Part shown: in pieces, positions 33,181-62,277 of the stretch
How the letters are laid out: each line of letters opens with the position of its first letter
How positions within the stretch are numbered: the first letter of the stretch is position 1
From: a virus
Lineage: Duplodnaviria; Caudoviricetes
DNA: 64,000 bases
Reading direction: 5' to 3' (one strand)
IMG/VR virus record: IMGVR_UViG_3300032214_000867
Span: 820 to 64,819 of that record
Position numbers and translations under genes: made by a program
The notes under the pieces: model-generated
What the model was told of the DNA's origin: nothing
Seen by the model: the letters and a program-made list of their open reading frames with translations, nothing else
The model's database searches: none

Positions 33181-33217
33181 TTAATTTAAAAAAATTACAA
33201 AAATTTGAATTGAAAAA

Positions 33218-34090: not shown

Positions 34091-34092
34091 GT

Positions 34093-36024: not shown

Positions 36025-36028
36025 TATA

Positions 36029-37652: not shown

Positions 37653-37662
37653 TTACGAAATT

Positions 37663-41937: not shown

Positions 41938-41941
41938 AAAA

Positions 41942-42838: not shown

Positions 42839-42839
42839 T

Positions 42840-44352: not shown

Positions 44353-44384
44353 TTAAAACAAATTTTTACAATGATTGAAAAAAT

Positions 44385-45167
44385 ATGGTAACTATACTTA
44401 AGCAGTGCGGATTGTCTAATAGGATAAAAACTATGTGGAGCGCAGTTCCTTTTCATGATGAAATTTATACCGAATCGGCATCAGATGCTTACATATTTCC
44501 AGATATTAAATTTACTGATAATACTATAAATCCAATAATTGATTGGAGATTAAAAGTTCTTCCAGAAGAAGAAAAGTATATTGATGAATACAAAACTATA
44601 GATCTTTTATATGAAAAGACCCCACAATATTTTATAGACAAGTATTTGAAAATTATTGAAAATTTAAAAATTAATCCTGATATATTGGAATATGTTAATG
44701 ATTTTGTTGAAGACTGGGACAATGAAGTTTTAGGAGTTCATATTAGAACATGGTGGTCTGGTGGAGATAGGAGTTTATGGCATCATAATTCTTTATTCGA
44801 AGAGCAAATTGAAAAACTTCCAAACGATTTAAAAATATTTTTATGTAGTGATAGTCCAGATACTATAAAACATTTTACTAACAAATATGGAGATAGAATT
44901 ATCTTTCATCCACAAAAACTTCATAATATGGCTTTGATGAATATTAATCCTTATGATCAGCATTATAGTGATATTCAACTTGTTGTGGATGGTTTTATAG
45001 ATTGTTTATTGTTGTCAAAGTGTAGTACAATTATTGGAACATGGTGTAGTACATTTACCGAGTGTGCTTGGTGGTTTGGTGGATGCAAAGCAAAAGTTAT
45101 TATTCCAGAACCATTAAATTATGATCCAAATTATAATGATAAGTTGTTTTTAAGAAAAGATGGATAA
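44385..45167 (+). CDS. O-fucosyltransferase-fold (GT-B) glycosyltransferase
   Basis: GLSNRI, GVHIRT, FLCSD, LLSKC..IIGT..STF. Confidence 0.75.
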   Translation: MVTILKQCGLSNRIKTMWSAVPFHDEIYTESASDAYIFPDIKFTDNTINPIIDWRLKVLPEEEKYIDEYKTIDLLYEKTPQYFIDKYLKIIENLKINPDILEYVNDFVEDWDNEVLGVHIRTWWSGGDRSLWHHNSLFEEQIEKLPNDLKIFLCSDSPDTIKHFTNKYGDRIIFHPQKLHNMALMNINPYDQHYSDIQLVVDGFIDCLLLSKCSTIIGTWCSTFTECAWWFGGCKAKVIIPEPLNYDPNYNDKLFLRKDG

Positions 45168-45951
45168 AAATAAAGCAGCATATAAACTCAAAGGTCTCCC
45201 TGAAATTTATTATATTAATCTGGATGATCAACCAGAGAGAGCAAAGTATATGGAGGACCAATTTAAATATTGGGAGGTTGAGAAATATACTCGTATTTCT
45301 GCATACGATGGGCGTGATGATGATCTAAGTGATATTATTAAAGGTAGATATCCATCTATGATGAACTCTGGTGAAGTTGGGTGTGTTACCTCTCATCTAA
45401 AATGCTTAAAACATTTCTTAGAAAATTCTAATGATCCATGTGTATTAATAATGGAAGATGATTGTGATTTGGACACTGTTAAGCACTGGTCATTTTCTTG
45501 GAAAGATTTTTATTCTAAAATTCCATATGATTATGATGTTATTCAATTAGCAATAATTAATCCGGCTCAAATTCATATGAAATTGCATAGAAGATTTGTT
45601 AACGATTTTTCAACTGCATGTTATTTAATTACACGACATCATGCACAAAAATTAGTTAATCTTCACTGTAGGGATGATAAGTATAAGTTAGATAATGGAG
45701 TTAAACCTCGTGCGGTTGCTGACGATTTAATTTATAATTCTGGAAATACTTTTTCAATTCCTCTATTCATGTATAAAATTGAATTGGGTTCTTCTATTCA
45801 TAAAGATCATATAGATGTTTTTCACAGATCTAGTTACGATGGTCTATGGCAATTTTGGAAAAATGAATCATCTGACGTTACGGATTGGAATTCTATTTTT
45901 GATTATGATCCTTATTTTGGAACACTTCCTCCAGGTTGGGAAGGAAAATAG
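45160..45951 (+). CDS. GT25 glycosyltransferase
   Basis: YYINL...R, RISAYDG, GEVGCVTSH, IMEDD, TACYLI. Confidence 0.88.
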   Translation: MDKNKAAYKLKGLPEIYYINLDDQPERAKYMEDQFKYWEVEKYTRISAYDGRDDDLSDIIKGRYPSMMNSGEVGCVTSHLKCLKHFLENSNDPCVLIMEDDCDLDTVKHWSFSWKDFYSKIPYDYDVIQLAIINPAQIHMKLHRRFVNDFSTACYLITRHHAQKLVNLHCRDDKYKLDNGVKPRAVADDLIYNSGNTFSIPLFMYKIELGSSIHKDHIDVFHRSSYDGLWQFWKNESSDVTDWNSIFDYDPYFGTLPPGWEGK

Positions 45952-45987
45952 TAAGCATTTATACTTATAATGTGTGAAAACCGTAAC

Positions 45988-46045
45988 AAAGGGGTGCTTG
46001 ACACCCCTTTCTTTTTGCTATATAATTCTGTAACAGTTCTTTACA
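45988..46045 (+). promoter_or_regulatory. Terminator hairpin containing a consensus sigma70 promoter, with HLR1-like repeat
   Basis: AAAGGGGTG-CTTGA-CACCCCTTT; TTGACA 45998-17 nt-TATAAT 46021; minus-strand GTAAAGAA-CT-GTTACAGA. Confidence 0.78.
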
Positions 46046-47577: not shown

Positions 47578-47742
47578 ATGCCACGTTGTCAACTGACTAA
47601 AGAAATTATTAAATGTGAAGTTCTTAAAATGAAAAGGGATTTGGATAATGAATGGATGAATAAATCTGGATATGATCCAAAATGGTTAGCACACCAATAC
47701 CTTAATAAGGTATTGGATAAGATTGAAGAATACTCATATTAA
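47578..47742 (+). CDS. Hypothetical protein
   Basis: MPRCQLTK...AHQYLNKVLDKIEEY. Confidence 0.6.
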   Translation: MPRCQLTKEIIKCEVLKMKRDLDNEWMNKSGYDPKWLAHQYLNKVLDKIEEYSY

Positions 47743-47773
47743 TAAATACTTTAGTTGCATTCGGGAGAAAGGC

Positions 47774-48445
47774 ATGACATTAGATCTTCATAATTTTTTC
47801 AAATATTATGATGATGGTAATGTGAACCATGTGGCAGCAGTTCAGTGGTTGGAAGATAATCTTCCTGCTCAATTTCTTGACGATTCAGAAACAGAATGGA
47901 TTGGAATTTTTAGAACTAAACCACCTACACCAGAAGTTCTAGCAGTTCCATATTTCAATCAAGTAGACAACTACAGAGATGCACATAGAACTTGTAATAG
48001 TTCATCATGTGCTATGTGCCTTGCTTTCCTCAAGCCAGGAAGCATCAAAGGTGATGATGAATATGTTAAAAAAGTATTTGCGATTGGTGATACAACCGAC
48101 CATGCAGTTCAAACTAAAGTTCTTGCTGGATATGGCGTAAAGTCACACTTCAGTTATAATCTTTCTTTTGCTGATATTGATAAGAGTCTTGATGCTGGGA
48201 AACCTGTTGTTATTGGTATCTTGCATCGCGGTTCTTTATCTAACCCTACTGGTGGACATATGTGTGTAGTCATCGGTAAGACTCCAGATGGTAAAGGATA
48301 CTATGTAAACGATCCATATGGTTCTCTGAATGATAACTATACTGGTCCTGTAACTAACGGTAAAAAAACTATTTACACCAAAGCAGTTCTTAAGCACCGT
48401 TGGTGTCCAGGAGGTAATGATGGCTGGGGAAGAATATTCGATTAA
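47774..48445 (+). CDS. C39-like cysteine peptidase with N-terminal accessory domain (putative cell-wall hydrolase)
   Basis: LAVPYFNQ..CNSSSCAM, GGHMCVVIG, VNDPYG. Confidence 0.88.
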   Translation: MTLDLHNFFKYYDDGNVNHVAAVQWLEDNLPAQFLDDSETEWIGIFRTKPPTPEVLAVPYFNQVDNYRDAHRTCNSSSCAMCLAFLKPGSIKGDDEYVKKVFAIGDTTDHAVQTKVLAGYGVKSHFSYNLSFADIDKSLDAGKPVVIGILHRGSLSNPTGGHMCVVIGKTPDGKGYYVNDPYGSLNDNYTGPVTNGKKTIYTKAVLKHRWCPGGNDGWGRIFD

Positions 48446-48543
48446 ATTTAAAGCAAAGATGCTTAAAGTCATCAAAGAACTTACAAATAATGGAAAGCAT
48501 GTTGAAGCAAACGAACTCTATCTAAAATACTTTGGAGGTAAAA

Positions 48544-49239
48544 ATGGCAAGAATTGATCTTCATAACTTTTTTAAATTTTATGATGAAAAAAATCCTAAT
48601 CATGTAAAGGCAGTTCAGTGGTTAGAAGATAATTTACCAGTCAAATATCTTGAAGATAATATTGATTGGGCGGAGATTTATAGGGGAAAAAAGGGTAATG
48701 CTGCAGCAGCATCTACATCAGATTCTGCTTCTGCTCCTGCAGCATCTTCTTCACCTGCACCTGTAGGTGGTGATGATGTTCCACAAATGGGTATTAAATT
48801 AATTAAAGAATTTGAAGGATGCCACTTAAATGCATATCCTGACCCTCTAACTGGTGGACTTCCAATCACAATCGGTTGGGGATCTACTAGAGATAAGAAT
48901 GGACAACCATTCCAAATGGGCGATAGTATCACTCAATCAGAAGCAGATGAATTGCTAATTACCCAGTGTAAGAATCAGTTTCTTCCTGCACTTCGAAAAA
49001 TTCCACATTGGGGAGAAATGTCAGATGGAAAAAGAGGCGCTTTGCTCAGCTTCGCTTATAATCTTGGTGCTGGTTTCTACGGTGGTGATAACTTTAACAC
49101 TATTACTAAACGCTTGAAGAATAAAGAATGGGACTTAGTTCCAGATGCTTTATATCTCTATCGCAATCCTGGATCTAACGTAGAAGCAGGTTTAGCACGT
49201 AGAAGAAAGGCAGAAGGTGAAGCTTGGAAAAAAGGTTAA
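48544..49239 (+). CDS. GH24 lysozyme (endolysin) with the same N-terminal domain
   Basis: LIKEFEGC..AYPD..TIGWGST, ALLSFAYNLG, GLARRRKAE. Confidence 0.93.
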   Translation: MARIDLHNFFKFYDEKNPNHVKAVQWLEDNLPVKYLEDNIDWAEIYRGKKGNAAAASTSDSASAPAASSSPAPVGGDDVPQMGIKLIKEFEGCHLNAYPDPLTGGLPITIGWGSTRDKNGQPFQMGDSITQSEADELLITQCKNQFLPALRKIPHWGEMSDGKRGALLSFAYNLGAGFYGGDNFNTITKRLKNKEWDLVPDALYLYRNPGSNVEAGLARRRKAEGEAWKKG

Positions 49240-49257: not shown

Positions 49258-49683
49258 ATGGACCCTCAAAAGAAAAGAGAAGCTTGTATGAGCCAAATTA
49301 TTCGTATTGCGATTTTGGGTTGGTCTGCCGCACTTCTTACGGCAAGTTATGCTGGGGCTCTTGCTAAAATGGACCCAACGTTTATAGCAACAGTATTTAC
49401 TGCATCTGCCGCAACATTTGGAATTAATACTATGAAGAAAGGTGGAGATGATGATGACGAAAAAAAGTCTGAAGCAAAAAGAGAGGAGTTTGTAGAAACA
49501 CCTCCAACTACTGCTTCCGAAGCAGTAGTTGAACCAGTAGTAGAGGCAGTAGTTGAAGAAACAACTGTTGAAGAACCATTAGTTCAAACTGGTTATAAAG
49601 AAGAAACTTCTCTTGAAGAAAGAGTTGAAGCTTTAGAAGCAAAAGTCGATGAAGAAAAACCCTATTCAAGAGGAGATCTCTAA
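49258..49683 (+). CDS. Holin-like protein, two TM helices and acidic tail
   Basis: ILGWSAALLTASY and DPTFIATVFTASAATFGI directly after the endolysin. Confidence 0.55.
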   Translation: MDPQKKREACMSQIIRIAILGWSAALLTASYAGALAKMDPTFIATVFTASAATFGINTMKKGGDDDDEKKSEAKREEFVETPPTTASEAVVEPVVEAVVEETTVEEPLVQTGYKEETSLEERVEALEAKVDEEKPYSRGDL

Positions 49684-49963: not shown

Positions 49964-50091
49964 ATAATCACACTCGTCTTCATATGGAGACGGGTGATTT
50001 TTGGCATGAAGAACAGGCCCAGATGTTGAGAAAGTATGTCAAGGATTTGAAAGTCTGGATTCACAAACAAGAAGGATGGTGGGATGAATGA
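49891..50091 (+). CDS. Conserved hypothetical protein
   Basis: WNAPIHNILKAIDNH...WHEEQA..LRKYV.DLK.WI. Confidence 0.7.
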   Translation: MPREWNTPKRECWNAPIHNILKAIDNHTRLHMETGDFWHEEQAQMLRKYVKDLKVWIHKQEGWWDE

Positions 50092-50834
50092 AAAAAATCC
50101 TAACAGCAATCGGTTTATCACTAACCTTATCATTTCCAGCAATTGCTGCATCACTTGAACCCAAACAACCAACAGTAAGACCTTACAGTTTAGAGGCAAT
50201 GGGTTGTATGATACTTTTGGAATGTACCGAGGGTATTGAAAAATTATCAGAAGAATCTCAATTCTTAAAAAACCAAGACTTTGATCCATTTAGAGAAGAA
50301 ATTGTAAGGATAGTAACTTCTCTTAATAAACTAGAAGTTCCTGTTTACGTCGCACCAGAGAGATATTTTACTCCAAGAACGGTAGGGTTATATAAACCAA
50401 ACTATAATCGTTTCTTTATTAATGAAACTCTTCTCAAAGATCCAAGAGAATTTTTAGGAACACTTCGTCACGAAGGTTGGCATGTTGTTCAGGATTGTAT
50501 GGGTGGTGGATTGAAAACATCTTTCATGGCACAAGTTCATCAGGATAGTGAAATTCCTGCTTGGATAATGAAGCAAACAAGACTTACTTATGAGTCAATG
50601 ATGCAAAGTCGTGCTGTTCCTTGGGAGGCAGATGCAAACTGGGCAGAAGAACAATCAAATGTAACTGCTGAAAAGTTAGAGATGTGTGCGAAAGGTCCTT
50701 TATGGGATCAAATTCGCCCAACACCAATGACTATGGATTGGTTGATTGGTTGTGGATATATGAAACCACAGGAAGGAAAGTATCCATATTATCCAAATAA
50801 AAAAGTAGAGTATTGTACGGAAGGTAAGTATTGA
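50088..50834 (+). CDS. Secreted zincin-like metallopeptidase
   Basis: Signal peptide (PAIA), LRHEGWHVVQDC (HExxH), WEADA. Confidence 0.75.
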   Translation: MKKILTAIGLSLTLSFPAIAASLEPKQPTVRPYSLEAMGCMILLECTEGIEKLSEESQFLKNQDFDPFREEIVRIVTSLNKLEVPVYVAPERYFTPRTVGLYKPNYNRFFINETLLKDPREFLGTLRHEGWHVVQDCMGGGLKTSFMAQVHQDSEIPAWIMKQTRLTYESMMQSRAVPWEADANWAEEQSNVTAEKLEMCAKGPLWDQIRPTPMTMDWLIGCGYMKPQEGKYPYYPNKKVEYCTEGKY

Positions 50835-50986
50835 TGGATCAGTTTCCCTGGGGAGTTGTAATATTATTGTCTTGCGGTCTTGCCTTCACCGCATATATCA
50901 TTTACTACATATTAAAGTTAGCAAACGAGGAGATGAAAGATGAAACATTTAAGTCTGATTCTATCAATCACAAGTCTGAGCATTAG
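50834..50986 (+). CDS. Small single-TM protein
   Basis: MDQFPWGVVILLSCGLAFTAYIIYYILKLA...; TGATG coupling. Confidence 0.55.
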   Translation: MDQFPWGVVILLSCGLAFTAYIIYYILKLANEEMKDETFKSDSINHKSEH

Positions 50987-51152
50987 TGCTGCAATTGGTG
51001 TGGGGGCATACCTGACTTACCAAAAGGCACAGAAAATCTTAGATAATCCAGAAGCATTTGTTGGTACTGTTGTAGAGAAGCAGGTTAACAAAGCATTTGA
51101 GAAACTACCTATCCCTAAACTAAATAATGGGAGTATTAAGTTTCCTTTCTAA
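50940..51152 (+). CDS. Small membrane-anchored protein
   Basis: N-terminal hydrophobic helix; GAGGAG SD. Confidence 0.65.
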   Translation: MKHLSLILSITSLSISAAIGVGAYLTYQKAQKILDNPEAFVGTVVEKQVNKAFEKLPIPKLNNGSIKFPF

Positions 51153-51565
51153 TGTCAAACCAAGATCCATACATATATCGTATTCGCTCAATCCATAAGG
51201 TAGTCGATGGAGACACTATTGACGCTGATATTGATTTGGGGTTCGATATATCTCTTACTAAACGGATTCGCCTTGCTGGTATTGATACCCCAGAAAGTCG
51301 AACATCTGACGCGAACGAAAAGAAATACGGACTTGAATCAAAAGATTGGTTGAAGAAGCGTTGTGAGAATGCAAAAGACATTCTTATCAAGACCGAACTT
51401 CCAGATTCCACAGAGAAATATGGGAGAATTATAGGTCACTTGTTTATCAATGGCGAAGAGACTTCTCTGAATAATCAGATGATTGTTGAAGGATATGCTT
51501 GGAATTATGATGGTGGAACAAAGAAAAAGAACTTTGATGAACTTTTAGCAAAAAGGAAAAAGTGA
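51152..51565 (+). CDS. Thermonuclease (SNase-like)
   Basis: KVVDGDTID, RIRLAGIDTPE, KYGR, GYA. Confidence 0.9.
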   Translation: MSNQDPYIYRIRSIHKVVDGDTIDADIDLGFDISLTKRIRLAGIDTPESRTSDANEKKYGLESKDWLKKRCENAKDILIKTELPDSTEKYGRIIGHLFINGEETSLNNQMIVEGYAWNYDGGTKKKNFDELLAKRKK

Positions 51566-51762
51566 TTTACTTTAATATTGTTAGACTATTCATCATTATC
51601 TGGGCTGCATTGATGATTTCTGCTGTTGAGTCTGTTGCGATTAGAACAGAGGGGCAAGTAGAACTAGAGAGTACAAGTCGTGATGCCTATTCCAAAGTTC
51701 TCATTCTTGCAGTTGGTTCTTTTCTTGGTGATGCTGCTTTTAAGTTAAAGAATAAGAAATGA
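51562..51762 (+). CDS. Small two-TM protein
   Basis: Two hydrophobic segments; GTGA coupling. Confidence 0.55.
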   Translation: MIYFNIVRLFIIIWAALMISAVESVAIRTEGQVELESTSRDAYSKVLILAVGSFLGDAAFKLKNKK

Positions 51763-51992: not shown

Positions 51993-52101
51993 ACGTAAAG
52001 AAGAGAAGGATAATATCTTTCTAGAAATTTTTTATAACGTTTTAGTTCAATTGCCAGCAATGATTGTTGTGTGGATTATTTCTAAATTTACTTCAGATTG
52101 A
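51967..52101 (+). CDS. Small single-TM protein (44 aa)
   Basis: MTTAPAKDKRKEEKDNIFLEIFYNVLVQLPAMIVVWIISKFTSD; converges on the minus-strand operon. Confidence 0.45.
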   Translation: MTTAPAKDKRKEEKDNIFLEIFYNVLVQLPAMIVVWIISKFTSD

Positions 52102-52974
52102 AAACTTAGATGATAATTTTTTAGCAATTTTTTTAGCAGGGGCAAAGAGAGACTTAAATCTTTCTTTGCCTTCTTTTGTGAACTTATCTTTGATTACATC
52201 GTCAATAATAATTTTATTATCAATCTCATAGAGAGCATTGATTTCAACTTGGTCACGGATATATTGTTCTACATTATCAACTTGCTCTACTAAACGAGTT
52301 CCTTCTGCTGAGTATTCAAAAACATCTACATGCCCACCTTCTGCTAGGACATAATGTAGAACTGGTTTAACTTGTTTGATTTTAATTTTAAACTTATTCT
52401 TTGTTGCTTCTTTTATAAGGGGTTCTGCTGCATTCTTCAGAGCATTCAGAACTGTTGTTGATGCTATTGTGGCAGCAGTTGTGACTACTGCGACAGCACC
52501 AGCCGTAGCAACAAGAGAAGGGTCAGGTAAATTAATATCGATTCCATTTATAGTAAAGGTTGGAGTAGTAGGTTTGTCTGCTGGTATCTCTGCTTGTACA
52601 GATTGTACTGGAACTTGTACGCTCTGTATAAGTTGTTGTGGTATCTCTGGTGGTTTAGTATCTGGTAATCCTCTTTCTTTTGGTTTTTCTTCCTGTTTTT
52701 GTTTTTCTCTTTCTGCTTTTACTGCAGCATCAAACTCTGCTTGAGTTGGAACATTAATGACTGGATACGGTATTCTTGTATTTGGCACATCAACAATAGG
52801 AACTTCTAACCCACGAACAACTGGTGCTTCAACATCACGAATTGCTGGTTTCTCTATAGTAGAAATTACAGAGGGACCAGCAATTTTACTGATGTTTGAA
52901 TTTGGAACATTAATCGGATTATTTCCGATTATAGGTCTTAAACTAGAATTATCAATTGGTTTTATTGGTTCCAT
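52093..52974 (-). CDS. Pro-rich protein with internal hydrophobic helix (putative membrane anchor)
   Basis: P/I/V-rich first half, LPDPSLVATAGAVAVVTTAATIASTTVL, basic segment after it. Confidence 0.75.
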   Translation of the reverse strand: MEPIKPIDNSSLRPIIGNNPINVPNSNISKIAGPSVISTIEKPAIRDVEAPVVRGLEVPIVDVPNTRIPYPVINVPTQAEFDAAVKAEREKQKQEEKPKERGLPDTKPPEIPQQLIQSVQVPVQSVQAEIPADKPTTPTFTINGIDINLPDPSLVATAGAVAVVTTAATIASTTVLNALKNAAEPLIKEATKNKFKIKIKQVKPVLHYVLAEGGHVDVFEYSAEGTRLVEQVDNVEQYIRDQVEINALYEIDNKIIIDDVIKDKFTKEGKERFKSLFAPAKKIAKKLSSKFSI

Positions 52975-53536
52975 TTACTACGTCCTCAACTCGTGGATAT
53001 TTCACAACAACATCTGCACAAACTTTGTAGTAAGGACTTTCTGGATGGAACATTACTCCATTCTTATATGCTTCACCACATTTTAATAATCTTACGAGTT
53101 CAAAATCCAATCTTGCCTTATCAGTTTCTACTTGTTGTCTGGCAATTTCAGTTGCTGCTCTTTTTTTACATAATTCCATTAGATTTCCATCTAATGGAAT
53201 ATTAAGACCAGCAGAAATTCCCCAGTTACCATTGCGAGAAGCAAAACTTTCTGGATCATCACTATTATTGCCACTGTGCATTAAAAATGGAGAAACTGAA
53301 AATGTTGCTCCTTGACAACTAACTCCACCACCATAAGTATTTACTGCATATGGACCTTGTAATACCTGAACTGCTTGGTTAGTTACATTACCAGTAGCAG
53401 ATGCTGAAGGTCCTGCAATATTCGTATTACTTGGTGCTGGAGTGCTTTGTGCGAATGCAGTTCCAGTTGAAATTATTGCGTAAAGACAGAGATTGATGTA
53501 GTGGTTGATTGAGTTTCTGTAGTGCGATCTATCCAT
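52952..53536 (-). CDS. Exported protein with TolC-repeat-like beta-hairpin plus helix and four Cys
   Basis: AFA-Q signal cleavage site; GATFSVSPF...NWGISAGLNIPLDG then RAATEIARQQVETDKARLD. Confidence 0.7.
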   Translation of the reverse strand: MDRSHYRNSINHYINLCLYAIISTGTAFAQSTPAPSNTNIAGPSASATGNVTNQAVQVLQGPYAVNTYGGGVSCQGATFSVSPFLMHSGNNSDDPESFASRNGNWGISAGLNIPLDGNLMELCKKRAATEIARQQVETDKARLDFELVRLLKCGEAYKNGVMFHPESPYYKVCADVVVKYPRVEDVVNGTNKTN

Positions 53537-53832
53537 GTTTCTTTAGCCACTCCAGGCCCGAGATAGGTTTCACTGAACTGGAATGGAGCACCTTGAGTCA
53601 TAATACTGTAGTTTGCTCCCTGTTGAGGAGTGCCAGGAATGTTAATATTAGTTCCAGTCACAGTATATGATGTGCCAGTTGTATATTCAACTTGGCGAAT
53701 TGTTTCTATAACTCTTGTAGTTGATTCTGTAGTTGCATTGATTGTGCCTCTGGTAAAGTTAGGCACAACGGATTCTGCTAGGGCAGGGCAAGAAAACCCT
53801 AGCAGGAATAAACCTGCTAGGATATTTTTCAT
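53473..53832 (-). CDS. Exported Thr-rich beta protein
   Basis: Signal peptide (PALA-E), VVPNFTRG, GAPFQFSETYLGPG. Confidence 0.8.
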   Translation of the reverse strand: MKNILAGLFLLGFSCPALAESVVPNFTRGTINATTESTTRVIETIRQVEYTTGTSYTVTGTNINIPGTPQQGANYSIMTQGAPFQFSETYLGPGVAKETWIDRTTETQSTTTSISVFTQ

Positions 53833-54290
53833 TTGAATACGCTTAATTCAATACTACGTTGACCTGTTGCGGTTGTTCCTGCACCACCAGCAGTAACAGT
53901 AGGAACACCAGTTGGGGATAAGGTTCCTGCGAGAGTTCCTTTTTCACCACCAACTTGAGTTACACTATCTCCATAGAGATTTGGTGTTCCAATAACACCA
54001 TTAGTGACTGTTTGGGTTGTTACGGGAGTATCTGCAGCATTAAAACTTTCAGAGAAAGTGAATGCTTGACCTGGAGTATTAATATCATAGGTTCCAGCAC
54101 CACCTACACCACCAAAGGATGTGGATTGGATATTGGTTCCCGACGCTGAATATGAAGCACCGATTCGGGTTGATTGAACTGCAGCACCATCAACTTTCAA
54201 TTGTACAGAGTCAGTGATTCTTGATGTGATTTCAGCAGCATTAACTGGGATTGCGAAGAATAACGAAAAGGCTAATAGAAGTCTTTTCAT
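53829..54290 (-). CDS. Exported G/T/S-rich beta protein
   Basis: Signal peptide (VNA-A), ITDSVQLKVD, GQAFTFSESF, TAGGAGTTATGQ. Confidence 0.8.
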   Translation of the reverse strand: MKRLLLAFSLFFAIPVNAAEITSRITDSVQLKVDGAAVQSTRIGASYSASGTNIQSTSFGGVGGAGTYDINTPGQAFTFSESFNAADTPVTTQTVTNGVIGTPNLYGDSVTQVGGEKGTLAGTLSPTGVPTVTAGGAGTTATGQRSIELSVFK

Positions 54291-54318
54291 TTTCTTATAT
54301 TGTGATAAACACTACAGC

Positions 54319-54325
54319 TATTTAG
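54319..54325 (-). promoter_or_regulatory. T4-type late promoter of the minus-strand operon
   Basis: CTAAATA on the minus strand about 29 nt upstream of ATG 54290. Confidence 0.6.
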
Positions 54326-54547: not shown

Positions 54548-55630
54548 ATGACTGCTTCAATCGCTTCACGCCGTTCTGGCGAAAACCTCTGGGAACAATT
54601 TTGCCAGTGGGTAACTTCAACCGATAACCGCCTTTATGTTGGTTGGTTCGGTGTTCTGATGATTCCAACGCTGCTTGCTGCTGCTACTTGTTTCATCATC
54701 GCATTCATCGGTGCTCCCCCTGTGGACATTGATGGTATTCGTGAACCCGTTGCTGGTTCACTCATGTACGGAAACAACATCATCTCTGGTGCTGTTGTTC
54801 CTTCTAGCAATGCTATCGGTCTACACTTCTACCCCATCTGGGAAGCTGCTTCTCTCGATGAGTGGCTATATAATGGTGGACCGTTCCAACTGGTCGTATT
54901 CCACTTTCTGATTGGTATCTATGCCTACATGGGTCGCGAATGGGAACTTTCTTACCGACTTGGTATGCGTCCTTGGATTTGTGTTGCCTACTCTGCACCC
55001 GTTGCTGCTGCTAGTGCAGTGTTCCTGGTCTATCCCTTCGGTCAAGGATCCTTCTCTGATGCGATGCCTCTGGGGATTTCAGGAACTTTCAACTACATGC
55101 TTGTTTTCCAGGCGGAACACAACATTCTTATGCACCCTTTCCATATGCTGGGAGTTGCTGGTGTCTTCGGTGGTTCTCTTTTCTCTGCTATGCACGGATC
55201 TCTTGTCACCTCTAGTCTTGTACGTGAGACGACAGAAAATGAGTCACAGAACTACGGATACAAGTTTGGACAAGAAGAAGAGACCTACAACATTGTAGCT
55301 GCTCATGGTTATTTTGGTCGCCTTATTTTCCAATATGCTTCCTTCAATAACTCCCGTAGTCTTCACTTCTTCCTTGCTGCTTGGCCTGTAGTTGGCATCT
55401 GGTTCACCGCTCTTGGTGTTTCTACGATGGCTTTTAACTTGAATGGTTTCAACTTTAACCAGTCAATTCAAGATAGTCAGGGTCATGTAATTAATACATG
55501 GGCAGACATTCTGAATCGTGGTGGTCTGGGTATGGAAGTTATGCATGAACGTAACGCCCACAATTTTCCGTTGGATCTTGCTGCTGCTGAGTCAACTCCC
55601 GTTGCTCTCACCGCTCCTACCATCGGTTGA
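54548..55630 (+). CDS. psbA: Photosystem II D1 protein (Glu130 high-light type, Synechococcus-like C-terminus)
   Basis: [34 protein letters not shown]; no intron. Confidence 0.99.
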
Positions 55631-55675: not shown

Positions 55676-55752
55676 TTATGTCTTCAATTCATAACAAAAT
55701 CTAACACATCAGTAAGAACTCATTATAATTAGTGATGAGTTCTTACTTTTTT

Positions 55753-56412
55753 ATGAAGATCTTTTTAGATACAGCAGATGTTTCAATGATTAGTCCAGCA
55801 TATGAGACTGGACTATTAGATGGAGTCACTACAAATCCATCTTTAATTCTTAAGAGTGGAAGGCAACTTATAGAAGTCATTCAAGAGATTGCAACGGATT
55901 TTAAAAACTTAAAAAGTATTTCTGCAGAGGTTGTTGCTGAAACTTCAGAGGAAATGCTTTCACAGGCACAACAATTTTATTCAATCGCACCAGCAGTTAC
56001 AATTAAAGTTCCTTGTACCGTAGAAGGACTTAAGGCTTGTAAGTTTCTAACTGATAAAGGAATACAAGTTAATGTAACATTAGTGTTTTCTGTAGCACAG
56101 GCAATTCTTGCATCAAAGGCAGGAGCAACATTCATCTCACCATTTGTTGGACGTTGGATGGACAATTCTATTGATGGAATTGAACTCATCAAGAACATTC
56201 GTAAGGCATTTGATCATTCATTTTCACAAACAGAAATTCTTGCAGCATCTCTTCGTGATGTAAGACAGGTAGAACAGTCTGCTCTTGCTGGTGCAGATGT
56301 CGTTACAATCCCTCCTATTGTATTCTGGGGAATGTATAAGAATATTATGACTGATAAGGGTCTAGAACTCTTTCAGAAAGATTGGGAAGAGGTTATTAAA
56401 AATCAAAAATGA
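55753..56412 (+). CDS. talC: Transaldolase TalC
   Basis: IFLDTA, GVTTNPSL, TIKVP, NVTLVFS, ISPFVGR. Confidence 0.97.
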   Translation: MKIFLDTADVSMISPAYETGLLDGVTTNPSLILKSGRQLIEVIQEIATDFKNLKSISAEVVAETSEEMLSQAQQFYSIAPAVTIKVPCTVEGLKACKFLTDKGIQVNVTLVFSVAQAILASKAGATFISPFVGRWMDNSIDGIELIKNIRKAFDHSFSQTEILAASLRDVRQVEQSALAGADVVTIPPIVFWGMYKNIMTDKGLELFQKDWEEVIKNQK

Positions 56413-56615: not shown

Positions 56616-57650
56616 ATGAAAGTAGGATTAATTGGACTAGGGCGAATGGGCGAAGGAATGTCCCGTCGTATGATGAAAGCAGGAATAGAAGTCTGGGGTT
56701 ATCGGAGGAATTATGAGAAAGCAAACGAAGCATATGAAAAGGGATATGTGGATGGAATTGCAACTACTATTGAAAATCTTGTTAAAGTAGTTAAACAAAA
56801 TCATAAAGGTGGTCAACAACCAGGCATTTTTCAAATGGTTGTTCCTGCTGAAACAGTAGAGGAGACGATTAATGAGTTACTACGATATTGTGGTGAAGGA
56901 GATATTATTATTGATCATGGCAATAGCAATTTTAAGGACAGTCGGAAGAGAGCAGAACGACTTGCAAAGCAGGGCATCCAGTATATTGATTGCGGCACTA
57001 GTGGTGGTGTTTATGGTTTGGATCGTGGATACTGTCTTATGGTTGGAGGTGGAGATACTGCAGTCGCCACTTGTGCAAAGATATTCTCTGCCCTCTCCCC
57101 AGATATTCACTCCTGCCATAGAACGGATCCAACATCTGATGTAACTTCTGCGGAATACGGTTGGTTACATTGTGGAGGTCCAGGCGCTGGACACTTTGTA
57201 AAGATGGTCCATAATGGTATCGAATATGGCATTATGCAAGCATATGCTGAAGGATTTAATATCATCAAGAATGCAAACGCAGGTGCCAAATATGTCAGAG
57301 AAGGAGATGCAGAGGTTGCCCCTATGGCAGACCCAGAGAGTTATTGTTATGATGTTGATGTTGCTGAAGTGGCTGAGTTATGGCGTCGTGGTAGTGTGGT
57401 TGGGTCTTGGTTACTTGACCTTACTGCTGATGTGTTACGCAGGGATGGTGAGCTTAAACAGTTCTCTGGAGGTGTATCCGACAGCGGTGAGGGTCGTTGG
57501 ACTGTTTCTGCCGCTGTGGACTTGGGGGTTCCCGCTCCTGTCATTACTACTGCACTATTTGAAAGATTTAACTCACGCAATCTCGGATCGTTCGGAGCAA
57601 AGATTTTAAATGGAATGCGTTACATGTTCGGAGGACATCACGTTAGATGA
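56616..57650 (+). CDS. gnd: 6-phosphogluconate dehydrogenase (short decarboxylating type)
   Basis: IGLGRMG, DHGNS, DCGTSGG, GAGHFVKMVHNGIEY, DSGEGRW, FGGH. Confidence 0.97.
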   Translation: MKVGLIGLGRMGEGMSRRMMKAGIEVWGYRRNYEKANEAYEKGYVDGIATTIENLVKVVKQNHKGGQQPGIFQMVVPAETVEETINELLRYCGEGDIIIDHGNSNFKDSRKRAERLAKQGIQYIDCGTSGGVYGLDRGYCLMVGGGDTAVATCAKIFSALSPDIHSCHRTDPTSDVTSAEYGWLHCGGPGAGHFVKMVHNGIEYGIMQAYAEGFNIIKNANAGAKYVREGDAEVAPMADPESYCYDVDVAEVAELWRRGSVVGSWLLDLTADVLRRDGELKQFSGGVSDSGEGRWTVSAAVDLGVPAPVITTALFERFNSRNLGSFGAKILNGMRYMFGGHHVR

Positions 57651-57755: not shown

Positions 57756-58028
57756 ATGAACGAATACTGGATAGTAACTGAAAATAGGACTGGAAGAGTC
57801 ATCGCTCATTGTGGTGATATTAATGATGCAATTATGATGGTTTCATTTGATCCTCATTATCGTTCATATAGTCGCCATCGTTTCATTATGGATCAAGTAA
57901 TTGATATTACTTCAACAACTGATAAGCAACTTCCTGGTCAACAAGGACTTCCTGCCGGACAAATTCAAGTATTAAATTCATATAAAGAAAAACTTCCGCA
58001 AGGTGTTGGTAAACCTGTGATTGTATGA
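57756..58028 (+). CDS. Hypothetical protein
   Basis: 90-aa ORF, RTGRVIAHCG. Confidence 0.6.
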   Translation: MNEYWIVTENRTGRVIAHCGDINDAIMMVSFDPHYRSYSRHRFIMDQVIDITSTTDKQLPGQQGLPAGQIQVLNSYKEKLPQGVGKPVIV

Positions 58029-58213
58029 ACCATAAAAAACATAAACAATCACAGAATCTCAAAAAGAAAAGGATGTATACACCTGAAGGATACGTTGGTG
58101 ATCCCCCAGATGCAAAATGTCCACATTGCGGAAAATCTGGAAAATCTTGTTCTTATGTAAATAGTTTAAGACGTGCTTGGGCAAGGAGTGCTTGTGCTAA
58201 AAAACATGAATAG
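58025..58213 (+). CDS. Small Cys-containing hypothetical protein
   Basis: CPHCG..C...C. Confidence 0.55.
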   Translation: MNHKKHKQSQNLKKKRMYTPEGYVGDPPDAKCPHCGKSGKSCSYVNSLRRAWARSACAKKHE

Positions 58214-59318
58214 AAAAAAGAAAATTGCAATTGTTGGTGCTGGTAATGCTGCTTGTGCTACAGCATTATGTTTGTATTACCAAGCATTTGATGGGATAGA
58301 TAAAATAACAATATATTACGATCCTTCGGTGCCGATAGAAAAAGTTGGACAAGGAACAATTATAAATTTTCCATATTATATTTCTAAAGTTCTTGGAATT
58401 AACTGGTATTTAAATGATAATATTATAAAGGCAACTTATAAAAGTGGAGTTCTTTATGAAAATTGGGGTAAAAAACAAGAAAAAATATTTAATCCGTTTC
58501 CCATGGATTCTACTGGAATTCATTTTGTTCCTCACTTATTATCAAAAGCTGTTTTGGAGTCTGGGTTATTTGATATAGTTGAAAGAAATATTGTTGATCC
58601 TGAAAAAGAAATAGATTCTGATTATATTTTTGATTGTAGAGGAAAAAATAATAGAAAACCAGATTTATATGAAAATTTAGTTAATCCTCTTAATCATGTA
58701 ATTCTCGCTAAAAAATCTGAACCAGATTTAAAATTAAACTATACAAGATGTGTAGCAACTCCTGATGGGTGGACTTTTGTAATTCCAAATCAAGATAGTG
58801 TATCTTATGGATATTTATTTAATAGTAATATAACTGAATTAAAAAATGCATCTAATAATTTTGTTGAAATGTTTGATGTTGAACCAAGTATAGAGTTTCA
58901 ATTTGAAAATTATATTGCTAAAAGTTGTTTTTATGGCGAAAAGACAATATTAAATGGCAATAGATTGTGTTTTTTGGAACCACTTGAAGCTACATCAATT
59001 GCTTATTACTTAACAGTTGTAGAAAATTGTTTACCTTACATATTTGAAAATTTAAGTAAGGAAAAATGTAATAATCAAATCAGAAATGAAATGTATAAAA
59101 TTCAAAATTTTATTTTGTGGCATTATCAATATGGATCAAAATATGATACTCCATTTTGGAGATATGCAAAATCTTTATCATTTCAACCAGATTTTGAATT
59201 TAAAAGCGCAGTAGAATATGCTGAAAAAAATAACTCTATTATTTGTAGATCTAGTGAAATGCAATATTCGCAGTGGCAAATTAACAGCTTTAAAATATGG
59301 ATTGATGGTAATACATGA
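58206..59318 (+). CDS. Flavin-dependent tryptophan-halogenase-like protein
   Basis: IAIVGAGNA, KVGQGT, ATYKSG, FDCRG, GWTFVIP, FLEPLEATS. Confidence 0.85.
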   Translation: MNRKKKIAIVGAGNAACATALCLYYQAFDGIDKITIYYDPSVPIEKVGQGTIINFPYYISKVLGINWYLNDNIIKATYKSGVLYENWGKKQEKIFNPFPMDSTGIHFVPHLLSKAVLESGLFDIVERNIVDPEKEIDSDYIFDCRGKNNRKPDLYENLVNPLNHVILAKKSEPDLKLNYTRCVATPDGWTFVIPNQDSVSYGYLFNSNITELKNASNNFVEMFDVEPSIEFQFENYIAKSCFYGEKTILNGNRLCFLEPLEATSIAYYLTVVENCLPYIFENLSKEKCNNQIRNEMYKIQNFILWHYQYGSKYDTPFWRYAKSLSFQPDFEFKSAVEYAEKNNSIICRSSEMQYSQWQINSFKIWIDGNT

Positions 59319-60856
59319 ATAACATGAAATTTATTGGTATTAGGGTATGTGATCATGATTCAAATATCACATATTCTAATGGGAAAAAAATAAAATATTA
59401 TAAGTCTGAAAGAGATTATCAAATTAAACATCATGGATTTAAAGATTTAAATCAGTGGAAGAAAATAATAGATATGTGGGATGTTTCTCCATCTGATATT
59501 GATGCGATTGGAATAGTAATGGATTGTTTTAGATATCCAAATATAGAATGTAGGGAGGAAAAAATTTATGAATTGATTGATATTCCTTTTTTTAATTTTC
59601 TTGGATTTGATTGTCCTATTTTTAGAATTAATCATCATTATGCACATACATTAAGTTCTTGGCCTCTTGGTGTTAAAACTGATATTGATTTTGTTTTTGA
59701 TGGATTTGGGGATGATTGGGAGTCTCATTCTATATTTAAAAATAATGAAAGAATTGTTAGGCGTAGTTCTAATGAGTTCCCAAGTCTTGGGATGGTTCTT
59801 GCCGAAATTGGTGTAATTTTAGAAATGCAAGGATTGGGATTAGATTATGCCGGAAAGATTATGGCGATGAAAGGATATGGGAGATCAAAAAATATTAATA
59901 ACCAATTTAGTTTTGAGTCATTTGGATTATTAAAATTGTGGGATTATAATTACTGCGCTCACATGAGTAGAAAAATACATAATTCTGTTCATGGGGTCGA
60001 TAAGATTGGAAAGGAATTTCAAGAATTTTTTGATCATATAAGAACATGCCATGAGGAAACCGAAAGAATTTTTGTTAATTATTTTAAATCTCATACATCT
60101 GAAAATGATGTGATAAGTTATAGTGGAGGAGTTGCTCAAAATACTATTATTAATTCCGAAATTAAAAAAGTTAGACCAAATCTTTATATTCCACCCCACT
60201 GTAACGATGAAGGGTTATCGTTAGGAATAGTTGAATTTCTTCGTCAATATTATGATCAAGAACCTTTTGATAACACTGGATATCCCTATTGGCAATCGGA
60301 TGAAAAACCAGAGTCTGATCCTTCAGATGAAACAATTTCTAAAACCGCAAGACTTTTATCTGAAGGTAAAATTGTTGGATGGTATCAGGGAAATGGTGAA
60401 GTTGGATCTAGAGCACTTGGAAACCGTAGTATATTAATGGATCCTTCTGTAAGAAATGGAAAGGAAATATTAAATAAAAAAGTTAAACGTAGGGAATGGT
60501 TTAGACCTTTTGGAGCTTCAATTCTGGAAGAAAAAACTGAAAAGTATTTTGATTGGACTGGACCGTCTCCATATATGCTTTATGTAATGGATATAATTAA
60601 TAAAAAATCTTTTCCTTCAATTACACATGTGGATGGTACTTGCAGAATTCAAACTGTTTCTTCGGATTTAAATTTTTACTATAAATTAATATCCGAGTTT
60701 AATGAAATTACTGGTATTCCTATGTTGTTAAATACTTCTTTAAATGGTGGTGGAAAACCAATTTGCGGATCAATAAATGGTGCAGTAGAAATTTTTTCAA
60801 CAACTGATATTGATGTTCTTGTAATAGGAGATGAGATATATGAAAAAAATTATTAA
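59315..60856 (+). CDS. NodU/CmcH family O-carbamoyltransferase
   Basis: HDS, HHYAH, DGFG, AGKIMA, GGVAQN, RALGNRSIL, KRREWFRPF, LNTSLN. Confidence 0.93.
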   Translation: MNNMKFIGIRVCDHDSNITYSNGKKIKYYKSERDYQIKHHGFKDLNQWKKIIDMWDVSPSDIDAIGIVMDCFRYPNIECREEKIYELIDIPFFNFLGFDCPIFRINHHYAHTLSSWPLGVKTDIDFVFDGFGDDWESHSIFKNNERIVRRSSNEFPSLGMVLAEIGVILEMQGLGLDYAGKIMAMKGYGRSKNINNQFSFESFGLLKLWDYNYCAHMSRKIHNSVHGVDKIGKEFQEFFDHIRTCHEETERIFVNYFKSHTSENDVISYSGGVAQNTIINSEIKKVRPNLYIPPHCNDEGLSLGIVEFLRQYYDQEPFDNTGYPYWQSDEKPESDPSDETISKTARLLSEGKIVGWYQGNGEVGSRALGNRSILMDPSVRNGKEILNKKVKRREWFRPFGASILEEKTEKYFDWTGPSPYMLYVMDIINKKSFPSITHVDGTCRIQTVSSDLNFYYKLISEFNEITGIPMLLNTSLNGGGKPICGSINGAVEIFSTTDIDVLVIGDEIYEKNY

Positions 60857-61751
60857 TGTATTGTTTCTTTCTAGAAATTATAAAGAACAACTTTGGGAAT
60901 ATGATTTTATTATGAATGATATTCTTCCTTCGGATGTAGATAAAAATCCATACTTTATGTTTTTGGATGATGTTAGAAACTCAACAGAAACTTTTGATGT
61001 TCTTGTTTATAGTGCTAGAGATCCAAATAATTATCCTTGGGGGTGGATGCCAACTTATGATGAAGTATTGGAATGTGTATTAAAGACAAAACCAAAAATA
61101 ATTATTCAATTATCTGATGAATTTAAACATGAAGATTTACAATCTCATAATAAATTGGGAAATTATTGTGAATTATTTTTAAGACAATATCATCATGAAA
61201 ATTATTTTTATACTTTAAACACTATTCATATACCACTTGCATATAAAAATGGATTTGACATTAAAAATAAGTCAATCAAATCTATAAAAGATAGGAAATA
61301 TAATTGGAGTTTCGTTGGAACTTATAAATCAGATAGACAAGAATTGATTGATTATTTTTCTGAAATTAAAAATAATAAGTGTATTGTTCGGGAAGAGAGT
61401 GATACTCAAGTCATTTCACCAGATCAACTTGTTGACTATTTTCTTGATTCTATTTTTATTCCTTGTAGTAGAGGATGGTCAACTATAGATACTATGCGGT
61501 TGTATGAAGCATCTATGTCTGGTGCTATTCCAGTTTTAGTTTCAACTAAAGAAGAATTTGAATTAGTATTTAAATATGAAGAAAATCCTCCTTGGATTTT
61601 TGCTCAAAGTTGGCAAGAAGCATCTAATATTTGTAAAAATCTTTTAGAAAATAAAGATGAGTTGGAAAAAATGCAACAATTAATTTTGGAGTGGTGGGAA
61701 AATAGAATTAACAAAATAAAAAAAATAGTTTACTTTTTAATATCAATTTGA
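60840..61751 (+). CDS. Exostosin-like glycosyltransferase
   Basis: LSDE, RKYNWSFVG...R, SIFIPCSRG...RLYEA..GAIPV. Confidence 0.78.
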   Translation: MKKIINVLFLSRNYKEQLWEYDFIMNDILPSDVDKNPYFMFLDDVRNSTETFDVLVYSARDPNNYPWGWMPTYDEVLECVLKTKPKIIIQLSDEFKHEDLQSHNKLGNYCELFLRQYHHENYFYTLNTIHIPLAYKNGFDIKNKSIKSIKDRKYNWSFVGTYKSDRQELIDYFSEIKNNKCIVREESDTQVISPDQLVDYFLDSIFIPCSRGWSTIDTMRLYEASMSGAIPVLVSTKEEFELVFKYEENPPWIFAQSWQEASNICKNLLENKDELEKMQQLILEWWENRINKIKKIVYFLISI

Positions 61752-61905
61752 AATGAAAAATTTAGCACATCAAGTTAAAGTTGTTTTAACACGAGATTCT
61801 GATATTACATATAAAGAAGAGTTTAATTATATTTTTATAACTCTAAAAGAAACTATAAAAATACTGCTAAAGATTAAATAAATAAGTATAAGTTATCTAT
61901 TCTTT

Positions 61906-62277
61906 ATGGAATTGTTTCATTCTTCCGAATGTTATTTGTATAATCTTGAAACTACTTCATCAAGTAAAGCAAAAAAAATTTGGAGAGAAGCAATAAAAGA
62001 AAAGTGGGATTATGAATGTGCATATTGTGGATCTAAAAATGACATTACATTAGATCATGTAATTCCTCAAGCATTTGGCGGTCTTGATATTTCCTCTAAT
62101 ATTGTATCTTGTTGTAAAACTTGCAACCATAATAAAGGGCATAAAAAATGGGATGAATGGTTCTTTGAAAAAGAATTTTTTTCAGAAAATAGATATAATA
62201 AAATAAGATCGTGGATTGGACAGAACCAAGTAAAAGAACTATATCCATATAAAATGAGAAGGAATAATTGTACTTAA
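61906..62277 (+). CDS. HNH endonuclease
   Basis: CAYCG, TLDHVIP..GG, NIVSCCKTCNHNKG. Confidence 0.9.
   Translation: MELFHSSECYLYNLETTSSSKAKKIWREAIKEKWDYECAYCGSKNDITLDHVIPQAFGGLDISSNIVSCCKTCNHNKGHKKWDEWFFEKEFFSENRYNKIRSWIGQNQVKELYPYKMRRNNCT

Follow-up and report, generated by a model that had tools for sequence, protein, structure and literature searches.

A gene cluster that recurs in marine cyanophages at varying genomic positions is already in print, without a function. Sullivan et al. 2010 (PMC3037559) described the genes T4-GC 218/219/234/235/237 as clustered in 15 of the 16 T4-like cyanophages compared, the cluster being absent only from S-PM2 and varying in position; in its available text the paper calls these five genes hypothetical, assigns them no function, marks experimentally determined structural proteins in its genome figure, and offers the guess that the genes cluster for functional reasons. 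Spanins, the two-component systems in which an inner and an outer subunit act as partners, have not been recognised in such phages: the accessible text of Kongari et al. 2018 (PMC6139136) classes many marine cyanophages, P-SSP7, P-SSM7 and Syn9 among them, as spanin-less, and 20 of its 91 spanin-less phages were isolated on Prochlorococcus or Synechococcus. Among open-licence papers and preprints we found no function for these genes and no spanin or holin named for marine cyanophages; work in subscription journals may exist. Here we analyzed a 64-kb piece of an IMG/VR viral contig (IMGVR_UViG_3300032214_000867; hereafter the window), with a CheckV completeness of 33% and a gene content of the T4-like cyanomyovirus type, which carries on its minus strand four overlapping genes, termed g1 to g4 and together the cassette (Table 1).

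Our best reading is that the four open reading frames (ORFs) are this virus's version of a conserved, mobile cluster of picocyanobacterial phages that encodes a host-envelope complex made late in infection. In the proposed complex, the anatomy of which we consider fairly probable, g3 oligomers would sit in the outer membrane with a coiled coil hanging into the periplasm, g4 would reach from the inner membrane toward g3, and g2, joined by its paralogue g1 where present, would act as periplasmic or surface accessory subunits. Together with an endolysin and a protein of family DUF6450 with two transmembrane (TM) segments, a candidate holin, the complex may carry out the last step of lysis, the disruption of the outer membrane. 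This function is put forward tentatively, at somewhat less than even confidence, as that of a non-canonical spanin-like system with an outer-membrane protein instead of a lipoprotein and an inner subunit oriented N-out/C-in. We rate it the best reading because the two-TM gene of related podoviruses takes the position of the T7 holin, the unit converges on endolysin and DUF6450 genes, the promoter motif is of late type, and the gene overlaps suggest coupling.

Gene presence, homology, linkage and motifs were read directly from the sequences. An earlier note on this DNA had described four overlapping minus-strand genes, and this observation is confirmed, with overlaps of 4 (g1/g2), 64 (g2/g3) and 23 (g3/g4) nucleotides, which points to translational coupling. 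The N-terminus of g3 is encoded 64 nucleotides inside g2, as had been seen; since the ATG at 53536 is the sole ATG, GTG or TTG within the first 50 codons of g3, this overlap is forced, and for lack of any other start the region coding for the g3 signal peptide overlaps that of the conserved g2 C-terminus. The description of the unit as the only one on the minus strand agrees with the PHROG scan: none of the 10 other minus-strand ORFs of at least 100 amino acids matches PHROG, whereas all four genes of the unit do, g4, unlike g1–g3, with a weak match (phrog_9426, 5.9e-4). The CTAAATA motif reported to precede the unit is in place; we take CTAAATA/TAAATA to be the late-promoter motif of the T4 and cyanophage literature. 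CTAAATA is not enriched across the window (10 found, 18.6 expected). Among 57 distinct g1 upstream regions from related loci, however, 47 keep TAAATA within 120 nucleotides of the gene, mostly 29–35 nucleotides before the ATG where g1 is called at ∼153 amino acids, in surroundings that have otherwise diverged. The unit does converge on the lysis module, with the genes for a C39-like peptidase, a lysozyme and the DUF6450 protein running toward the cassette on the plus strand. A search of the phage collection for near-identical DNA gave no match. Among metatranscriptome contigs, two runs matched shares of 0.06 and 0.05 of the stretch; the contigs in question are short, stem from relatives and fall mostly on g1 and g2. 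Because strand and transcription cannot be read from contigs and DNA may be present, these provide no evidence of expression.

The most widespread gene of the cassette is g3, which occurs in 462 phage records, every one of them cyanophage-named or marine/uncultured, and has 2643 close cluster matches and 312 representatives at 50% clustering (E ≤0.001). Signal-peptide and TM calls for all genes were made from hydropathy and charge counts and by visual inspection. The N-terminal hydrophobic region of g3 is a weaker one (KD19 1.02) that ends AFA/Q (the slash marking the putative cleavage site), and this region and the A-x-A site are kept across 51 aligned relatives. The four cysteines that the earlier note had counted are those outside the signal peptide (C74, C123, C153 and C173); the chain holds five in total, one of them in the signal peptide. 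All four are invariant in 51 of 51 sequences and presumably form two disulfides; N53, G106, P114 and G160 are invariant as well.

Folds and self-association were modelled. The AlphaFold2 (AF2) model of g3 (predicted local distance difference test (pLDDT) 75.4, predicted template modelling score (pTM) 0.48) runs from the signal helix through segment 25–53, which is conserved though modelled with low confidence, and a few short strands to a hairpin (78–90/100–112), a 42-residue helix (117–158) and short C-terminal helices; the hairpin leading into a long helix that had been proposed from the sequence is therefore modelled as such. In strand 105–115 hydrophobic residues alternate with small polar uncharged ones across the 51 sequences, and as neither face of the hairpin carries charged residues, we infer that g3 inserts in the outer membrane. 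The loop of the hairpin is hypervariable in length, from 15 to 112 residues, and for the helix region just two lengths occur, 36 and 43 residues, one heptad apart. In a four-copy model (residues 30–181) g3 scored 0.53, and the best of three controls 0.00. Of 30 proteins whose solved structures are pairs of one chain, 20 reach the mark for self-association, compared with 1 of 23 whose solved structures are single chains; this calibration is only rough for g3, for which an alignment made here and four copies rather than two were used. The four-copy runs agree in at least 90% of contacts, with a partner pLDDT of at least 63: in the contacts of lowest predicted error, strand 109–115 lies antiparallel to 77–83 of the next copy, and further such contacts extend along helix 122–158. 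Oligomer modelling, a check that the earlier note had suggested, returned hairpins and helices joined side by side; the model consists of such lateral contacts, and ring closure, copy number and the membrane are not visible in it.

No known fold matched g3 significantly. Foldseek against solved structures gave nothing at E ≤0.001, and a wide VIA-align search of 48,161 chains gave no Z ≥5 (best Z 4.6, matches of long helices or coiled coils only), a null result that shows no known fold and does not prove a new one. The ESM Atlas search returned only the protein's own unnamed viral clusters, and a Pfam scan at E up to 1 returned 0 families.

The hydrophobic N-termini of g1 and g2 are Sec-type signals as first described, ending VNA/A in g1 and ALA/E in g2 (read by eye), and the motifs said to be shared by the two proteins are real (SGTNI and GQAFTFSES in g1, TGTNI and GAPFQFSET in g2). 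Their paralogy is supported by BLASTP (E 5e-5) and by hhalign (probability 99.2%, E 3.4e-19, with the signal peptides inside the alignment). g1 occurs in 235 phage records (tblastn), matches phrog_564 at 1.7e-31 and has only sub-threshold rows in Pfam, among them 13.8 bits against PF19847 at a cut-off of 30.6; g2 is found in 207 phage records and is a member of this family, DUF6322 (PF19847), with 53.1 bits against the same 30.6-bit cut-off. One GenBank record labels a g1 homologue 'OMP1 protein'. Across 36 aligned g2 sequences from two phage families, the cleavage-site alanine, P24, F26, T27, G29, G60 and N62 are invariant, as is the C-terminal S..S.F.Q, and the N-terminal hydrophobic region and A-x-A site are conserved in the family.

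The AF2 model of g2 (pLDDT 80.7, pTM 0.34) has strands at 28–51, 55–61, 85–91 and 94–118 that make long beta-hairpins, and both faces of the long strands are polar, as judged by eye from the sequence and the modelled strand boundaries. The best Foldseek row is a tail protein of the staphylococcal phage Andhra (2.6e-4), followed at E 0.006–0.05 by the phi29 tail and by the protective-antigen, CDTb, lysenin, iota and aerolysin pores. All of these rows are weak (TM-score ≤0.31), and their common feature, a long hairpin from which oligomeric tubes or barrels are assembled, can be taken only as a hint of shape. In a fold search of BFVD with g2 the top rows were only uncharacterised cyanophage proteins. 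Taken together, g1–g3 look like exported envelope proteins and not like obvious virion parts.

For g4, the proline-rich stalk and the single hydrophobic helix of the earlier description were both found, with 9% proline overall and a hydrophobic segment at ∼153–178; in the family the N-terminal part contains 13–19% proline (70 members), and the TM segment begins at median residue 152 of 286. In the g4 of the window the C-terminal part after this segment comprises ∼105 amino acids. Pfam gives sub-threshold rows only. The TM region is homologous to short proline-rich one-TM proteins of phrog_9426 (the PSSP7_042 type), with an hhalign probability of 98.1% and E 1.2e-13 over g4 residues 125–196. 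A profile hidden Markov model (HMM) of the short podovirus type, called 'pr', matches g4 at 2.9e-5 with high compositional bias, and the T4-GC 234 gene of P-SSM7 at 4.9e-9. Neither the g4 type nor the short type has an N-terminal signal. The net charge before the TM segment is −2 in the g4 type (70 sequences) and −3 in the short type (65), and after it 0 and +2, respectively; because the chain is acidic before the segment and neutral to basic after it, the positive-inside rule predicts that the proline-rich arm lies outside and the C-terminus inside.

We followed the cassette in 80 viral loci whose g3 is 61–100% identical to that of the window (clade 1). The survey of synteny and co-occurrence that the earlier note had called for found g2 in 79 and g1 in 71 of these loci by tblastn, always upstream of g3 in the order g1-g2-g3, and the loci without a g1 or g2 match begin inside the cassette. 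In 62 loci g4 directly follows g3 on the same strand (41 full length, 21 of 221–242 amino acids); of the remainder, 13 have it at another place and on the opposite strand, one has it on the same strand at a distance, and in four it was not found, two of these having no room for it. g4 is linked to the cassette but not fixed. The picture of one fixed four-gene operon was accordingly not borne out, as g4 shifts place and strand among relatives and the wider conserved set includes DUF6450. Within 4-kb flanks of the 80 loci we found DUF6450 in 61, SNase in 55, the phrog_591 protein in 36, psbA in 21 and lysozyme in 20, and by these counts the layout of the window is typical of its clade.

Distant g3 sequences were used to retrieve a further 80 loci (clade 2). 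These belong to T7-like cyanopodoviruses, and one of them (L094) is P-SSP7 at 99.5% identity. A block of four genes on one strand, in the order proline-rich one-TM protein, DUF6450 two-TM protein, g2 and g3, is present in 66 of these loci; the 14 exceptions comprise 11 loci truncated at their 5′ end, one truncated at its 3′ end, and two in which the profile detects no first gene. No g1 was detected by the g1 HMM in any of the 80. In P-SSP7 the block corresponds to PSSP7_042-045, whose annotations record a single TM region, two TM regions, a SignalP signal and 'hypothetical', and lies between the tail-fibre genes and the small terminase. The annotation of PSSP7_045 in P-SSP7 (L183, 5657-6112) starts late, so that the signal peptide is removed. 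The corresponding interval of T7 contains its type II holin, a two-TM protein, while the T7 spanins come immediately after the small terminase.

The two-TM gene connects the two phage types. The podovirus two-TM HMM, 'tm2', matches the window ORF 49258-49683 at 4e-14, and the same ORF matches Pfam DUF6450 (PF20048) at 5.8e-16. Like the T7 type II holin gp17.5, DUF6450 proteins are small and have two TM segments, and the P-SSP7 form sits between tail fibre and small terminase as gp17.5 does in T7; they differ from gp17.5 in being longer (∼100–145 amino acids) and in having a charged tail, and we know of no sequence similarity between the two. Size, TM segments and position make the DUF6450 protein a holin candidate by analogy.

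In the marine T4-like phages P-SSM7, S-RIM8 and Bellamy, g1, g2 and g3 occur together. An HMM detected a g4-like gene in P-SSM7 and S-RIM8, and in Bellamy such a gene was recognised in the translated sequence; the P-SSM7 and Bellamy copies are convergent with g3 and overlap its 3′ end. In these two phages DUF6450 was detected by HMM no more than a few kb away, and in S-RIM8 it was located by a genome search. The S-RIM8 ORF 3728-4231 had been considered as the g4-like gene and was rejected, as it has neither the proline-rich arm nor the TM segment of g4. In phage DSL-LC03 the order is endolysin, an autotransporter-like gene, DUF6450 and a g4-like gene, followed by g3-g2-g1 on the other strand. 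The autotransporter-like gene (L002, OR003938; 8039-9688, minus strand), between endolysin and DUF6450, encodes 549 amino acids and is annotated as 'autotransporter outer membrane beta-barrel domain-containing protein'. In P-SSM7 (L181, GU071103) the g2 ORF at 6582-7046 (plus strand; HMM E 1.9e-27) is unannotated, hidden under an over-long 446-residue g3 call.

The annotation of P-SSM7 and PHROG scans tie these genes to the published cluster: GC237 is phrog_564 (g1), GC235 is phrog_848 (g3), GC218 is phrog_2714/721 (DUF6450), GC234 relates to g4 through the 'pr' profile, and GC219 is a two-TM phrog_605 protein. The same families are therefore clustered in both cases. They differ in that g2, unannotated in P-SSM7, is not among the genes listed in the available text of Sullivan et al., that GC219 was not found in the contig of the window, and that the g4 of the window has an additional C-terminal part of ∼105 amino acids. 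In that contig, which is 33% complete, neither phrog_605 (GC219) nor phrog_570 was found, and the product of window ORF 50088-50834, tried as a GC219 homologue, was rejected for want of similarity. The 'plasmid stability protein' that the available text of Sullivan et al. ties to the cluster is, in P-SSM7 (9662-9925), phrog_568/33185. New here are the occurrence of the block in T7-like cyanopodoviruses, the convergence on endolysin and DUF6450 in the clade of the window, and the fold model of g3.

Host homologues of g3 were considered and rejected. Ten g3 loci come from contigs of assembled genomes, all of them metagenome-assembled genomes (MAGs) or single-cell assemblies, and we read these as phage contigs in bins, not as host genes. 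In nine of them g2 adjoins g3, and the full phage-type block is present in four (L004, L006, L007 and L011) of the six that were inspected; the tenth (L013) is a 27-residue match and was set aside. The MAGs are labelled Crocinitomicaceae, Sphingobacteriales, Neomarinimicrobiota, Saccharibacteria, Flavobacteriaceae and Pelagibacterales, and two picocyanobacterial single-cell assemblies complete the set (L004-L013). These contigs are probably cyanophage contigs that were mis-binned or derive from infected cells.

Among described systems, the two-component spanins (lambda Rz/Rz1; T7 gp18.5/18.7) are one of the closest. Both they and the proposed complex have inner and outer subunits, a periplasmic coiled coil, conserved cysteines and overlapping genes, and in some of the phages the cassette, like spanin genes, is located with or next to genes for lysis. 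They differ in that the cassette encodes no lipoprotein and no type II (N-in) i-spanin, that its outer subunit is modelled as a beta-hairpin oligomer, and that one or two extra exported beta proteins are present; g1–g4 show no sequence similarity to spanins in Pfam or PHROG. An o-spanin lipobox is missing, g1 having no cysteine, C15 of g2 being unconserved in the 36 aligned sequences, and the g3 signals ending A-x-A, and the TM segment of g4, at median residue 152 of 286 with a predicted N-out/C-in orientation, is not that of a type II i-spanin. A coiled coil with conserved cysteines, on the other hand, is predicted for g3, where helix 117–158 changes length by one heptad and four cysteines are invariant. 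Lysis genes adjoin the cassette in the clade of the window and in DSL-LC03, and in P-SSP7 its position matches that of the T7 holin; the P-SSM7 and Bellamy loci have no annotated endolysin next to it. Of the TonB- or spanin-like anchor that the earlier note had seen in g4, the membrane anchor with a proline-rich arm stands and the likeness to TonB does not: the TM segment is central to C-terminal, the proline-rich part is N-terminal to it, the orientation predicted from the charge bias, with this part outside, is the reverse of that of TonB, and Pfam finds no TonB domain in g4. In trimeric autotransporter anchors, as proposed for g3, each chain contributes a small number of strands to an oligomeric barrel, to which a coiled coil is attached; they differ from g3 in topology and in the order of the parts, the coiled coil passing through the barrel to the outside, and no search made here returned a match to them.

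Table 1. Positions of the cassette and its neighbours in the window
Feature	Position	Strand	Description
CTAAATA motif	54319-54325	-	28 nt upstream of g1 ATG; T4-type late-promoter-like
g1	53829-54290	-	153 aa; putative exported T/G/S-rich beta protein, g2 paralogue; phrog_564; T4-GC 237
g2	53473-53832	-	119 aa; putative exported polar beta protein; Pfam DUF6322, phrog_650
g3	52952-53536	-	194 aa; signal peptide, hairpin, helix (modelled), four invariant Cys; phrog_848/1755; T4-GC 235
g4	52093-52974	-	293 aa; predicted bitopic membrane protein, Pro-rich N-terminal part; relates to phrog_9426, T4-GC 234 type
DUF6450 two-TM protein	49258-49683	+	directly 3′ of lysozyme; phrog_2714/721/21865; T4-GC 218; holin candidate
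Peptidase C39-like	47723-48445	+	endolysin gene; context, outside minus-strand unit
Phage lysozyme	48532-49239	+	endolysin gene; context, outside minus-strand unit
psbA	54548-55630		window neighbour, divergent from cassette
Transaldolase	55732-56412		window
6-phosphogluconate dehydrogenase	56616-57650		window

The earlier note had read the unit as a miniature secretion and fibre system, in which a g3 pore exports g1 and g2 and these polymerise to surface fibres or a tube. Several results fit this idea: g3 is modelled as a laterally assembling hairpin and helix, its weak Foldseek rows are mostly TolC-family channels (SilC, OprJ, OprM, TolC, CmeC, MtrE and CusC; E 0.2–2, TM-score ≤0.22, root-mean-square deviation mostly 12–22 Å), g1 and g2 are paralogous exported beta proteins, and the g2 model has strands of 24–25 residues and weak matches to oligomeric long-hairpin barrels and tubes. 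TolC and the other outer-membrane factors do share with g3, as modelled, a membrane beta-hairpin, a long periplasmic helix and side-by-side assembly. They consist, however, of two helix-strand-strand-helix repeats in a mature chain of ∼430 residues, compared with one hairpin and one helix in ∼165 residues for g3, which in addition has four invariant cysteines. The OEP repeat PF02321 was not matched by g3 (Pfam, E up to 1), and the model contains only short strands before the hairpin and no ascending/descending helix pair as in OEP repeats, so that membership of the TolC/OEP family could not be maintained. The same holds for g1 and g2 as curli-like major and minor fibre subunits: they have no amyloid-type repeats, Pfam gives no match to curlin or CsgG for any of g1–g4, the faces of the long g2 strands are polar, and the absence of HMM-detectable g1 from the 80 podovirus loci means that a two-subunit fibre is not conserved. 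With all structural matches below significance (TM-score ≤0.31) and no evident gain from fibres for a lytic phage late in infection, we regard a pore with fibres as quite improbable.

A different use of late exported proteins in the outer membrane or periplasm would be superinfection exclusion or receptor masking, by which other phages are blocked or progeny are kept from sticking to debris; coliphages are known to encode outer-membrane proteins or lipoproteins that act in this way, such as T5 Llp and Cor. Such a role would suit the signal peptides on g1–g3, the outward hairpin tip of g3, which at 15–112 residues varies as a surface under changing selection might, and a cluster that behaves as a mobile cassette, varying in place and strand, and that is dispensable in S-PM2 according to the available text of Sullivan et al. 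2010 (PMC3037559). Yet variation is equally expected of an unconstrained loop, and exclusion genes are usually early or constitutive, whereas the motif here is of late type. Exclusion also leaves unexplained the tight link to a bitopic and a two-TM protein, the recurrence in two phage families and the T7 holin position, and we consider it unlikely. In cyanobacteria Sec signals lead to thylakoids too, and psbA adjoins the cassette divergently in the window, DSL-LC03 and Bellamy and lies in 21 of the 80 clade-1 flanks, so that the proteins might be targeted to the thylakoid lumen or membrane and modify photosynthetic membranes during infection. The neighbour is hsp20 in P-SSM7 and S-RIM8, though, and tail-fibre and terminase genes in P-SSP7; an amphipathic beta-hairpin oligomer would suit the outer membrane and not thylakoids, and the link to DUF6450 and endolysin would have no explanation. 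Thylakoid targeting is very improbable, and we think just as little of the proposal that the hydrophobic N-termini are no signal peptides and that the products serve in the virion or its assembly. The late-type promoter motif, the place of the P-SSP7 block after tail-fibre genes, and the phage tail and collar proteins among the weak g2 fold rows agree with virion proteins; the conservation of the hydrophobic N-terminus and A-x-A site in both the g2 and g3 families does not, and the invariant g3 cysteines fit an oxidising compartment. Homologues are moreover 'hypothetical protein' in P-SSM7, and the available text of Sullivan et al. 2010 (PMC3037559) calls them hypothetical while marking structural proteins in its genome figure.

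Several points weigh against an envelope complex for lysis. We infer the lysis role, the envelope location and the late timing from sequence and models, and the same applies to outer-membrane insertion, the g3–g4 contact, the roles of g1 and g2 and the holin role of DUF6450. To our knowledge, DUF6450 has never been shown to be a holin. S-PM2, a lytic phage, has no such cluster according to the available text of Sullivan et al. 2010 (PMC3037559), and the cluster is therefore not universally needed. No annotated endolysin lies beside it in the P-SSM7 and Bellamy loci, and only five of the 80 podovirus loci contain a lysozyme. By eye there is no lipobox in g1–g3, g4 has no N-terminal TM domain, and g1 and g2 have no counterpart role in any known spanin. 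Without an N-terminal signal in g4 or its relatives, the export of an N-terminal arm of 45–176 residues is unexplained. The hydrophobic face of the g3 hairpin could form the core of a small soluble barrel. The structural support consists of models with low pTM (0.48 for g3, 0.34 for g2), no solved fold matched g3 in the Foldseek and VIA-align searches described above (none at E ≤0.001; best Z 4.6, long helix only), and the four copies of g3 reflect the modelling limit and not an oligomer number.

Further genes lie between the lysis module and the cassette. Window ORF 50088-50834 (plus strand), between DUF6450 and SNase, encodes a 248-residue protein of phrog_591 with a Sec-type signal, the HExxH-like motif HEGWH and no Pfam match; it may be a secreted metallopeptidase of the same envelope/lysis neighbourhood. 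Three small plus-strand ORFs between this gene and the cassette (50831-50986, 50940-51152 and 51562-51762) have one or two hydrophobic segments each and could be further lysis-timing or membrane proteins; the last of them has a weak match to the DUF6450-type profile (E 0.004). Elsewhere in the window, ∼28000-46000 and 58000-62000 stand out with a G+C content of 0.27–0.31, compared with 0.34–0.43 in the rest, and many back-to-back plus-strand ORFs of 220–350 amino acids.

Phages that lyse Prochlorococcus and Synechococcus provide one of the major routes by which carbon and nutrients are released in the sea, and the cassette, common to cyano-myoviruses and cyano-podoviruses, gives concrete candidate genes for cyanophage lysis. 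The design of g3 is unusual, with one amphipathic hairpin and one coiled-coil helix per chain, a predicted lateral assembly and no solved relative found; if the protein does insert in the outer membrane, it would represent a new small outer-membrane protein architecture. Going further, a lysis cassette passed on by horizontal exchange might be common to marine and freshwater picocyanophages of two unrelated families, T4-like and T7-like, and specify a spanin of a new class. Its outer subunit would be g3, a self-assembling beta-barrel/coiled-coil protein with one hairpin per chain in place of a lipoprotein, its inner subunit would be N-out, proline-rich and C-terminally anchored, and it would work with a DUF6450 holin. 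We hold this broader proposal to be doubtful; if true, it would explain why these phages have been scored as spanin-less. Should the cassette serve exclusion or a change of the cell surface, it would still comprise widespread, mobile phage genes that alter the host envelope.

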